Sequence record: NC_014792.1
Direction: 5' to 3' (one strand)
Origin: Escherichia phage vB_EcoM_VR7
DNA length: 64,000 nt
Part shown: positions 24,567 through 37,438 of the stretch, in pieces
Layout of the letters: each line of letters begins with the position of its first letter
Position numbering within the stretch: the stretch's first letter is position 1
Made by a program: the position numbers and the translations under genes
Notes under the pieces: generated by a model
Seen by the model: only the letters and a program-made list of their open reading frames with translations
Told to the model about the DNA's origin: nothing
Database searches by the model: none

Positions 24567-24727
24567 AGTTGTCTCTTAGTTGTAGGGCCATTCCTTGGCA
24601 CATTAATTCGTCCATGTATCCGAATGTAAACCCCTTACCGCACTCGGGCTCGACCTTATTACAGGTAGGGAAAGGTCCATCACTCAGAGGACACGACGTT
24701 CATGAGGAGAGGGTCGGTTTGCCTTTA

Positions 24728-25027
24728 TTAAAAAGAACCAGAGCCTTTAATTGTGTTCTGGCGACCTTTATTTTCGAATTCAGAATGGTCGATTTCGTAT
24801 GCTTGTGCTACGCCAAAGGCCTTTTTAACTTTAGCTAAAGAACCTTTAGATGTAACAATATTAAAAGTATTGCCTTTGGTAAAATCAACCAAATCCACTT
24901 GCACACCCTGTTTACCGAGGCTTGCTACAATAGCATCAACATATTGTTGGTCTAAATTGCCTTGAACCCCAATTTGAAATGCTTTAGGAACTTTGGCTTC
25001 TGTGATAAATTCTTGATAAGTTAACAT
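24728..25027 (-). CDS. Internal-protein-like (capsid-targeting-sequence-bearing) protein
   Basis: 99 aa; N-terminus MLTYQEFITE matches T4 IP capsid-targeting sequence. Confidence 0.55.
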   Translation of the reverse strand: MLTYQEFITEAKVPKAFQIGVQGNLDQQYVDAIVASLGKQGVQVDLVDFTKGNTFNIVTSKGSLAKVKKAFGVAQAYEIDHSEFENKGRQNTIKGSGSF

Positions 25028-25056
25028 TATACACTATCCCATCATAAAGTAAACAG

Positions 25057-25320
25057 TTAAGCTTTACCGCCAGAAACAATACCAAAGGTCTCAAAGTCCC
25101 ATTCAATATCGTCAACATCAACTTTCTTACCAGCAACCACAAATGCGATTTCGCGGCGTTTTGCATAGGTAACAATTTCTTTGCCATCGCCGCCAAAGAA
25201 AGAATAACCATTGCGCTTCATGGTGCCAAAGTCTTCAGCATCACCAGCGAAGGCACGGACTTTAAAGGAGCCAGCAGGAGCTTTAGCAGATTCAGTAATA
25301 AATTCTTGATAAGTTTTCAT
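25057..25320 (-). CDS. Internal-protein-like (CTS-bearing) protein
   Basis: 87 aa; N-terminus MKTYQEFITES. Confidence 0.6.
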   Translation of the reverse strand: MKTYQEFITESAKAPAGSFKVRAFAGDAEDFGTMKRNGYSFFGGDGKEIVTYAKRREIAFVVAGKKVDVDDIEWDFETFGIVSGGKA

Positions 25321-25333
25321 AATGTCTCTTTAG

Positions 25334-25648
25334 TTAAGCTTTAGGGAAATCGCGCAAAAACGCATCATAAAGTTTATTACCAATGCGACGGAATGCTTTT
25401 GCCGCATGAACGTTATCTGGGTTTGCAATTTTAATCTGCATTACATGACTACCAGCCCATGATTTAGCTTCGTCATAATAACCTTTAATTTCTTTAATAG
25501 TCTTGCGTTTTCCACCAGGACCATCGACAGTAATTTTCCACGAACCAGTGCTTGTTTCACTTGGTGGGGTTAACTGTTCAATCCAGACATAACCACCTTC
25601 AACACGTTGTTGAGTAGATTCAGTAATAAATTCTTGATAAGTTTTCAT
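25334..25648 (-). CDS. Internal-protein-like (CTS-bearing) protein
   Basis: Track ORF trimmed to MKTYQEFITEST start at 25648; upstream codons are translated promoter. Confidence 0.55.
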   Translation of the reverse strand: MKTYQEFITESTQQRVEGGYVWIEQLTPPSETSTGSWKITVDGPGGKRKTIKEIKGYYDEAKSWAGSHVMQIKIANPDNVHAAKAFRRIGNKLYDAFLRDFPKA

Positions 25649-25678
25649 TTTATATTCCATTGTTTGGTTGATAAAATC

Positions 25679-25705
25679 ATTATACAACCTTTTTAGTTAA
25701 GCGTA
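25679..25705 (-). promoter_or_regulatory. Middle-type promoter (CGCTTAA, 12 nt, TATAAT)
   Basis: Minus sense TACGCTTAACTAAAAAGGTTGTATAAT. Confidence 0.45.
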
Positions 25706-26113
25706 CACAGCTTTCCCATAGTATTTGTACCAGGTAGGCTTTTGAGAAATTTTCTCATTCAGTCTGGATTGACTGATTTCAATTGACCAGATTGATGGTT
25801 GATAATCATTCTTCCATTCATCAGGAATATCATTTAAATCTTGGGTAGAAATATCTTTTATATTAAACCCTCGCTTTAAACATTCAGCAATAAGTTCTTG
25901 ATGACGGTTTTTAAGGAACAAAAGCTTATCATAAAAGAAGGTGACATGACCAGTCCCTAAAAGAAAAGATGATGGGATTTTAAAGTCAGACACCTTTTTA
26001 CCATTTTGCACATGCTTACGAACAGCACCAAACACGCGAGGAAGCTCACGGTATTCAGCCATAAGGTGTTGGTCAGCAAGTTCAGATACCAGGGTTAAAT
26101 TAATGCGAGTCAT
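25697..26113 (-). CDS. denV: Endonuclease V (pyrimidine-dimer DNA glycosylase) DenV
   Basis: 138 aa; [34 protein letters not shown]...[13 protein letters not shown] matches remembered T4 DenV. Confidence 0.95.
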
Positions 26114-26139
26114 GTTTGTTCTCCGTAGTTGATAGGGTC

Positions 26140-26169
26140 ATTATAACCCTATCGTTTGGAGATGTAAAC
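26140..26169 (-). promoter_or_regulatory. Early promoter (GTTTACA, 17 nt, TATAAT) upstream of denV
   Basis: Minus sense GTTTACATCTCCAAACGATAGGGTTATAATGACCC. Confidence 0.5.
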
Positions 26170-36129: not shown

Positions 36130-36154
36130 GTTGTCTCCAGTAGTTGATGGGATA

Positions 36155-36184
36155 ATTATACTGCAGTTATCCCATCACGTACAC
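36155..36184 (-). promoter_or_regulatory. Early promoter-leader cassette
   Basis: Plus strand gttgatgggataattatactgcagttatcccatcacgtacac. Confidence 0.5.
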
Positions 36185-36462
36185 TAAATTTTTGTATATT
36201 GTCCAGCTTTAACTTTTTTCAGTTCACGAGGGCTTACCGCGTAAGTGAATGGAGCATTCCAGGAAGAACTGACTTTGTAACCTTTAGTCAACATCATTGC
36301 TGAAACTTTCTTGTTATCAGGACCGTTTTCGCCTTTAACAAGAAACAACTCAAATGCGCCACCATCAACCGGTTTGGCCTTAACCATCAGATGTCCTTTC
36401 AGGTCTTCCAGCATATCCGGGTGACTAATTGATTCGTTAATAAATTCTTGATAAGTTTTCAT
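36184..36462 (-). CDS. Internal-protein-like (CTS-bearing) protein
   Basis: 92 aa; N-terminus MKTYQEFINES. Confidence 0.6.
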   Translation of the reverse strand: MKTYQEFINESISHPDMLEDLKGHLMVKAKPVDGGAFELFLVKGENGPDNKKVSAMMLTKGYKVSSSWNAPFTYAVSPRELKKVKAGQYTKI

Positions 36463-36487
36463 GTTGTCTCCAGTAGTTGATGGGATA

Positions 36488-36517
36488 ATTATACTGCAGT
36501 TATCCCATCGTGTACAT
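36488..36517 (-). promoter_or_regulatory. Early promoter-leader cassette
   Basis: Plus strand gttgatgggataattatactgcagttatcccatcgtgtacat. Confidence 0.5.
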
Positions 36518-36816
36518 TACATTTTTGAACCGCGAATCACGCCATAAGCTGCGAAGTCGTCAGTGATGTTCTTAGGGGTGTTTTTACCAGTTTCAATATA
36601 TGCGATGCTGGATTTCTGACCAAATGAGGTAATTTTATTATAGTTAGAGTCAAGGAAAGTATAACCATTTTTACGCAGCTGGTCAAAGTCTTCAGCGTCG
36701 CCTTTACCTTTGAAGTCAACCCATTTGTATGTGTTTTTCTTCTGAAGGCCCAGAGGCCAGGTTTTTGCTTCTGCCAGGTAATTATTTTCTACCAAAAATT
36801 CGTGGAGCGTTTGCAT
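36517..36816 (-). CDS. Internal-protein-like (divergent CTS) protein
   Basis: 99 aa; N-terminus MQTLHEFLVEN. Confidence 0.5.
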   Translation of the reverse strand: MQTLHEFLVENNYLAEAKTWPLGLQKKNTYKWVDFKGKGDAEDFDQLRKNGYTFLDSNYNKITSFGQKSSIAYIETGKNTPKNITDDFAAYGVIRGSKM

Positions 36817-37105: not shown

Positions 37106-37438
37106 TTATTTATACAGTTTAGCCAGTTCTTTACGTCCGCGAGCAGACATAATGAATTGTTCATCACCAATTTTGAAATAAGCCATACCACCGTCAACAG
37201 CGATGCCAATTTCTTTAGTACCTTCTTTGCCTTTCCACTTGCCACCAGATTTTAGGACAGCTTCAACCGCAGCTTTGGAATATTTGGACGTTTGAAAACG
37301 TTCATTACCAATCTGAAAGAAAACACCATCTGCATTTTTGGATAAACCAAATTTCAGAGAGCCTTCACTATCATCAATTGATTTGGTCTCATTGATGGCG
37401 GATTCGGCTAAAAACTCGTTATAAGTCTTGATGTTCAT
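37106..37438 (-). CDS. Internal-protein-like (divergent CTS) protein
   Basis: Track ORF trimmed to MNIKTYNEFLAES start at 37438 after GGAG RBS. Confidence 0.5.
   Translation of the reverse strand: MNIKTYNEFLAESAINETKSIDDSEGSLKFGLSKNADGVFFQIGNERFQTSKYSKAAVEAVLKSGGKWKGKEGTKEIGIAVDGGMAYFKIGDEQFIMSARGRKELAKLYK

Follow-up and report, generated by a model that had tools for sequence, protein, structure and literature searches.

Three putative internal-protein genes between denV and vs.8 of Escherichia phage vB_EcoM_VR7

What do the three small genes that follow denV in Escherichia phage vB_EcoM_VR7 encode, and what might they be for? The genes, here called c2_A, c2_B, and c2_C, lie at positions 24728-25648 of a 64,000-nucleotide (nt) stretch of sequence record NC_014792.1, referred to below as the window, in a region whose identity is 98.8% to Escherichia phage VR25 and ~94% to Shigella phage SP18; like these two phages, the window belongs to the genus Gaprivervirus. 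An original prediction had described them as T4-type internal-protein (IP)-like genes with an N-terminal capsid-targeting sequence (CTS), and in this the CTS residues, matches to PHROGs families, and the annotations of VR25 and SP18 agree. The genes probably encode proteins injected together with the phage DNA, and we hold with good confidence that they represent three T4-type IPs of the second hypervariable IP locus; we infer that their products would be packaged, cleaved, and ejected, and would probably act against host defenses.

On the minus strand, e (26657->26169) is followed by denV (26113->25697), the three genes, a gap of ~160 nt, and vs.8 (24566->24039). As had been claimed, three minus-strand open reading frames (ORFs) directly follow denV: c2_A (25648->25334, 104 amino acids (aa), N-terminus MKTYQEFITESTQQ), c2_B (25320->25057, 87 aa, N-terminus MKTYQEFITESAKA), and c2_C (25027->24728, 99 aa, N-terminus MLTYQEFITEAKV). 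Their first residues read MKTYQEFITE-STQ, MKTYQEFITE-SAK, and MLTYQEFITE-AKV, respectively. A six-frame scan of the whole 64 kb finds TYQEFI five times, always at an ORF N-terminus (c2_A/B/C and the ORFs starting at 36462 and 36129), and the CTS-coding 5′ ends of the three genes form a single 39-nt direct-repeat family in which A and B are 95% identical and C is 69% identical to them; this combination of N-termini and repeats is not due to chance. The program-made ORF list starts c2_A at TTG 25687 and thereby translates a TATAAT (25684-25679) as Tyr-Asn. The earlier suspicion that a -10 region had been misread as an N-terminus agrees with the annotation of VR25, which uses ATG 25648; the SP18 annotators chose a longer ORF. 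The genes lie within the hypervariable e-denV-vs.8 IP locus of T4 but on the opposite side of denV: the order is e-ipIII-ipII-denV-vs.8 in T4 and e-denV-A-B-C-vs.8 in the window, and the ipII/ipIII-equivalent position first assigned to them has to be corrected.

The leader is the feature that most directly points to packaging. The first 10 residues of T4 IPIII suffice for incorporation into the prohead core, mutagenesis of IPIII found targeting to depend most on residues 4 and 7 and processing on residues 8 and 10, and gp21 cleaves after L/I-x-E (PMC9026906); the 10-residue leader is enough to package foreign proteins in T4 (PMC3012670; PMC9026906). Y4, F7, I8, and E10 are retained in all three leaders, and each leader ends in the gp21 motif followed by a small residue (ITE/S, ITE/S, and ITE/A, with the slash at the cleavage site). 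The genes for gp21 and the scaffolding protein gp22 fall outside the window, and VR25 was used as the closest relative: its gp21 and gp22 are 88% and 73% identical to those of T4, gp67 and gp68 are present, and the gp23 maturation site LTE/A is conserved.

Behind the leaders, the mature domains are small (77-94 aa) and mutually unrelated, and profile-profile comparison of the A, B, and C families yields an alignment limited to 14 leader columns. As read from the sequences, a conserved leader joined to unrelated cargo is the classical IP signature. Nor are the three proteins simple orthologs of T4 IPII and IPIII: with leaders removed, BLASTP detects no significant similarity between mature c2_A/B/C and T4 IPI, IPII, or IPIII (best E value against IPII/IPIII, 0.92 or worse). 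No homology to the proven GmrSD inhibitors Ip1, Ip2, and Ip3 was found for any of them, and Pfam, NCBIfam, and PDB sequence searches returned nothing significant. Word-index homolog searches gave few clusters (2 for c2_A, 5 for c2_B, and 20 for c2_C).

Cleavage after E10 of c2_A, whose CTS is encoded at 25648-25619, is predicted to leave a mature protein of 94 aa (~10.5 kDa, isoelectric point (pI) 9.6); one extra I-x-E is present in c2_A (IKE, residues 51-53), and c2_B and c2_C have none beyond the leader. Over its full length c2_A matches phrog_3966 (function unknown, E 1.8e-32), and its match to phrog_2667, "internal head protein", is confined to the leader (residues 1-16, E 0.005). Its family comprises 188 phage records, all T4-like, and an exhaustive search of 1.84 billion representatives returned three matches, one of them a real relative. 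The other two, both long and repetitive, were treated as non-informative: P0029, which looks like a spurious repetitive ORF, and P0030, an actinobacterial-type repeat protein. In P0030 (596 aa, metagenomic), a thrice-repeated segment that includes residues 425-486 and contains WVIVQPVEDPPSTTMGQGSWQVGIDIAPG matches c2_A residues 19-80 (E 9e-6); this could reflect either distant cellular kinship with the c2_A cargo domain or similarity of composition.

The mature c2_B protein would have 77 aa (~8.3 kDa, pI 6.2). Annotated in RefSeq as "internal head protein", c2_B is 97.7-100% identical in VR25, SP18, and UPEC01 and 72% identical to RB69ORF125c, and its family of 207 phage records is all T4-like. 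In BLASTP with leaders removed, the only significant pair joins c2_B to a paralog in the ipI locus, the gene at 36816-36517 (34% identity, E 1e-12). The mature c2_C protein would have 89 aa (~9.5 kDa, pI 9.3); it belongs to the Ip7 family, its homologs in VR25 and VR26 being annotated ip7, and its 282 family members, again all in T4-like phage records, include an internal head protein from the ipI locus of T2 (48% identity). Its AlphaFold model (predicted local distance difference test score 70) suggests a ferredoxin-like beta-alpha-beta-beta-alpha-beta fold, and the best viral structure match in Foldseek is "Ip7 protein, MX01" (E 7e-11). Both c2_B and c2_C match phrog_2667 over most of their length (E 1.8e-41 for c2_C); a common origin of their mature domains was rejected because direct profile-profile comparison matches just the leader.

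Set beside the T4 proteins, c2_A/B/C are alike in the nearly identical leader (MKTYQEFIAE in T4 IPII/IPIII, MKTYQEFITE here), the I-x-E site, the small size, the hyperplastic e-denV-vs.8 locus, and the early-promoter/stem-loop context; they differ in having mature regions without detectable similarity, in lying on the other side of denV, and in that c2_B is not basic. Their direct homologs are the Ip7, Ip10, and "internal head proteins" of VR25, VR7, SP18, RB69 (ORF125c), CC31, MX01, and T2, with identities of 97-100% within Gaprivervirus and 45-80% in Mosigvirus, Karamvirus, Gelderlandvirus, Dhakavirus, and Tequatrovirus. In VR25 the A, B, and C genes are named ip10, internal head protein, and ip7, and in SP18 Ip10 and two internal head proteins; the ip7 and ip10 names come from earlier T-even IP surveys, as carried in annotations.

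We posit that each precursor would be made with a 10-residue N-terminal CTS (M-K/L-T-Y-Q-E-F-I-T-E), through which it would dock on the prohead's gp22 scaffolding core. The gp21 prohead protease would cut after I-T-E, and mature proteins of ~10.5, 8.3, and 9.5 kDa would stay with the DNA until they are ejected with the genome, whereupon each would most probably neutralize a particular host defense. T4 Ip1, Ip2, and Ip3 each block one distinct GmrSD-type type IV restriction enzyme, and in that study the genes of the two Ip loci are proposed to act against variants of the GmrSD system (PMC12373910); by analogy with these three proteins, an anti-defense role is most probable for c2_A/B/C.

The regions upstream of the genes suggest how the cluster is transcribed. 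An early-promoter/stem-loop module before denV (26131..26169, minus strand; GTTTACA-17 nt-TATAAT) has its -10 inside a GATAGGGT/ACCCTATC hairpin; its architecture matches the regions upstream of T4 denV, ipI, ipII, and ipIII, and it is likely the start of a denV-A-B-C transcription unit. A promoter-like module before c2_A (25666..25708, minus strand), recognized as a sequence pattern only, comprises a GTGTAC -35-like element (25708-25703), a MotA-box-like cGCTTaA (25703-25697) that overlaps the denV stop codon, a TATAAT (25684-25679), and a GGTTG/CAACC stem (25689-25666) around this -10. The MotA box consensus is (a/t)(a/t)(a/t)TGCTTtA, centered near -30 and 11-13 bp from a TAnnnT -10, with no -35 element. 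The module can be read as MotA type (cGCTTaA-12 nt-TATAAT) or as early type (GTGTAC-17 nt-TATAAT with the GGTTG/CAACC stem). The middle-type promoter proposed earlier retains its MotA-like fit but loses its assignment, since the early-promoter/stem-loop module fits equally well. The module is identical in five Gapriverviruses, and its conservation is therefore uninformative either way. The GCTTAA taken for a MotA box also forms the terminal Ala and stop codons of denV and belongs to a recurring motif: because the octamer GCTTAACT (Ala codon, stop, CT) ends denV, c2_A, and c2_B alike (25695-25702, 25332-25339, and 25055-25062), three cassette 3′ borders share it.

Without a promoter of its own, c2_B follows c2_A after 13 nt, with an AAGAG-type ribosome-binding site. 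Before c2_C stands a truncated promoter/stem-loop module (25025..25054, minus strand; GTTTACT-16 nt-TATAAT), whose -10 overlaps the ATG and whose sole remaining arm is the 5′ GATGGGATA. Alignment with SP18 reveals a 27-bp deletion that took the 3′ arm TATCCCATC and a GGAGA Shine-Dalgarno sequence, and at codon 2 ATGAAA has become ATGTTA (AAA to TTA, K2L). The window and VR25 have this deletion in common; the K2L protein is also present in TH15 and in a metagenomic cluster, and all other c2_C homologs start MKTY. Expression of c2_C may be low because the Shine-Dalgarno sequence is lost and its own -10 overlaps the ATG, and could rely on read-through together with a weak initiation region.

Comparison with relatives shows how the contents of the cluster vary. 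The window combines alleles that are 100% identical to those of different phages: A to VR26 and UPEC01 (and also VR25), B to UPEC01 and phage 212, and C to TH15. Ten relatives were surveyed for the contents of the two slots, e/denV and denV/vs.8. In the denV/vs.8 slot, the window, VR25, and SP18 hold A-B-C; VR26 holds A and a B/C fusion gene that joins the B leader to the C body (L005, 2381-2683); UPEC01 holds A-B, without C and with a downstream element of T4 type (L006, 3648-3791); RZ holds C only (L007, 2053-2352); and STML-198 holds B only. T4 carries ipIII and ipII between e and denV and nothing in the other slot, denV and vs.8 being separated by 26 bp. MX01 has ipIII and ipII orthologs (87% and 95% identity) plus one more gene in e/denV and an Ip7 homolog only in denV/vs.8. 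In RB69, the scan, which left out the annotated ORF127c, detected no gene in e/denV, and denV/vs.8 holds the c2_B homolog ORF125c, a c2_A homolog, and a third gene; CC31 has one gene in each slot, that in denV/vs.8 being a c2_A homolog. Both slots are used across Tevenvirinae. VR25 has an additional CTS gene, ip5, between e and denV (L001, 2686-2967; leader MKTYNEFLTVTTLNE/A), which is absent in the window, where e and denV are 55 nt apart (26114-26168). Members of the Ip7 family also occupy the ipI locus, in T2, which fits movement between loci.

Of three junctions examined, those of VR26 and RZ fall inside or at the edge of CTS repeats and that of UPEC01 falls after the c2_B stop codon. In RZ, the shared ATGAAAACTTATCAAGAATTTAT is where the region upstream of A passes into a C-type leader; in VR26, the B leader continues as far as GAATCTGCT and is followed by AAAGTTCCT of C. 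Such junctions are in line with recombination at the CTS-coding repeats, and recombination between the near-identical 5′ ends that code for the CTS would explain why relatives carry different cassette subsets; the promoter/stem-loop modules and the element before vs.8 are possibly recombination points as well. Earlier work describes two hypervariable IP loci that contain promoter/stem-loop elements, and over 30 IP variants (PMC2839356; PMC12373910), the IP-associated elements by Repoila et al. 1994, as discussed in Arbiol et al. 2010 (PMC2839356). In PeSL cassettes and around these IP-associated elements, as here, small accessory genes are flanked by short conserved modules of promoter plus hairpin, at which insertion/deletion boundaries also fall, but the junctions of VR26 and RZ are located in the CTS-coding repeat itself rather than in a promoter module; they would fit as an extension of the published view that promoter/stem-loop elements underlie the plasticity of the two IP loci (PMC2839356).

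A first cluster of such genes lies between 57B and the tRNAs, where five CTS-like ORFs start at 37438, 37097, 36816, 36462, and 36129. Together with c2_A/B/C they make up the eight candidate injected proteins, as against three in T4, that had been counted before; an expansion beyond three IPs is already known from the literature on the two hypervariable loci. The two first-cluster genes that begin MKTYQEFINE are each preceded by a nearly identical 60-nt module (36463-36522 and 36130-36189), in which GATGGGATA-actgcagTATAAT-TATCCCATC, with the -10 in the loop, is followed by caactactGGAGAcaacATG; it looks like a duplicated unit of promoter, stem-loop, ribosome-binding site, and leader. Among the eight genes, just one has a canonical late promoter (TATAAATA) nearby, at 37107-37114, 10 nt upstream of ATG 37097. 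Beside this ipI-type locus, only two tRNA genes were found in the window, Arg-TCT and Met-CAT (34571-34726). The equivalent region of T4 holds eight tRNAs plus RNA C and RNA D.

Could the three proteins be something other than injected inhibitors of host defense? They could be packaged and yet have a structural or physicochemical job, either by helping the core to assemble, in which T4 IPIII is reported to play a partial part, or by serving as counter-ions to the DNA in the head. In T4 IPIII mutants, head assembly proceeds at half the rate and the burst is 40%, each basic IP is present at ~300 copies per head (PMC9026906), and c2_A and c2_C are basic; against this, c2_B is not, all three T4 IPs have defined GmrSD targets (PMC12373910), and A, B, and C come and go freely among near-identical phages, which makes a needed structural role unlikely. 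We therefore regard this explanation as quite improbable. Far less credible still is the idea that the shared N-terminus is a mere recombination linker or translation-initiation module and that the proteins act, unpackaged, in the infected cell. The coincidence of cassette junctions with the CTS-coding repeat and the early-type, not late, promoters would suit it; however, the amino acid pattern, including the targeting and cleavage residues, is kept despite the 69% DNA identity of C to A and B, T4 IP genes share the same promoter context, and the 10-residue leader is known to carry foreign proteins into T4 heads. A reading in which c2_C, if no other gene, is decaying or weakly expressed in this lineage, leaving just A and B as functional cargo, is unlikely but deserves more weight than either of these. 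The deletion relative to SP18 removed the ribosome-binding site and half of the promoter module and changed codon 2, homologs elsewhere begin MKTY, and the predicted -10 overlaps the ATG; on the other side, the ORF is intact and 97-100% identical to its relatives over 99 aa, the K2L allele persists in VR25, TH15, and the metagenomic cluster, read-through from the c2_A promoter would still cover the gene, and suppressor experiments with Leu among the residues inserted did not mark out CTS position 2 as important for targeting (PMC9026906).

Several observations weigh against the identification of c2_A/B/C as packaged anti-defense IPs. The near-neutral c2_B departs from the basic character of classical IPs, and the damaged start region of c2_C may keep its expression low. 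A search of the accessible literature found no proteomic or genetic data for the three proteins, nor anything usable on virion proteomics of VR7 or JS98 IPs. The late promoter TATAAATA is absent in and near the cluster; because T4 ip genes also have none immediately upstream, we rejected its absence as evidence against IP status. [quoted passage not shown] Since the known hydroxymethylation and glucosylation enzymes are reported absent, the eight proteins are perhaps not aimed at such an enzyme, and we tentatively consider, as a possibility that is more doubtful than probable, that they target other immediate-early defenses, or type IV enzymes directed at an unknown base modification, and that the CTS repeat serves as an integron-like attachment point. 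If so, the CTS-coding repeat would allow one cargo to be exchanged for another, new one.

Between c2_C and vs.8, the cassette slot is bordered on its right-hand side by a conserved non-coding element (24585..24712, minus strand), which occurs in 963 T4-like phage records. Its first 33 nt (24712-24680) are nearly invariant and are followed by a helix that encloses two hairpins, ACCU-GUAAUA-AGGU (24666-24653; GCCU...AGGC in two lineages) and CCG-AGUG-CGG (24647-24638). The enclosing helix is CCCU/GGGG here, CUGG/CCAG in CC31 and STML-198, and UCCA/UGGG in RB69, and compensatory base changes across genera in the helices (14 distinct versions compared) indicate that the element is apparently structured. 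The 160-nt gap after c2_C gave no Rfam or tRNA match and no excess of minimum free energy over shuffles, and the structure was revealed solely by comparative analysis. Comparison of T4 (NC_000866, 64798-64912) with the window (24567-24727) shows that vs.8 is annotated ~44 codons longer in T4, with the element within its first 40 codons. Because the reading frame of the element is broken in the window and carries 1-nt indels in UPEC01 and RB69, the element is evidently non-coding and the T4 vs.8 ORF is probably overextended; the start MKFLTP here would correspond to the Met of ...EEMRTFLTG in T4. Some Karamvirus-like contigs (L027 and L030) carry two tandem copies of the element.

The kind of system described here is already known: the literature covers both IP loci and their diversity, near-identical genomes carry the annotation, and the variability of the c2 locus has been described since 1994. 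What is added are the corrections of slot and promoter class, the mapping of junctions, the damage to the start region of c2_C, and the recognition of a conserved element. The window presents no new kind of element but a clearly bounded trio of cargo domains that are unrelated to one another (ip10-like, RB69ORF125c-like, and Ip7-like). Host immunity encounters injected internal proteins before any other phage molecule, and because all three T4 IPs block different GmrSD enzymes, each uncharacterized IP family is a candidate inhibitor of some defense variant. The natural one-, two-, and three-cassette variants in the near-isogenic VR26, UPEC01, RZ, VR25, and SP18 would make for informative host-range comparisons.

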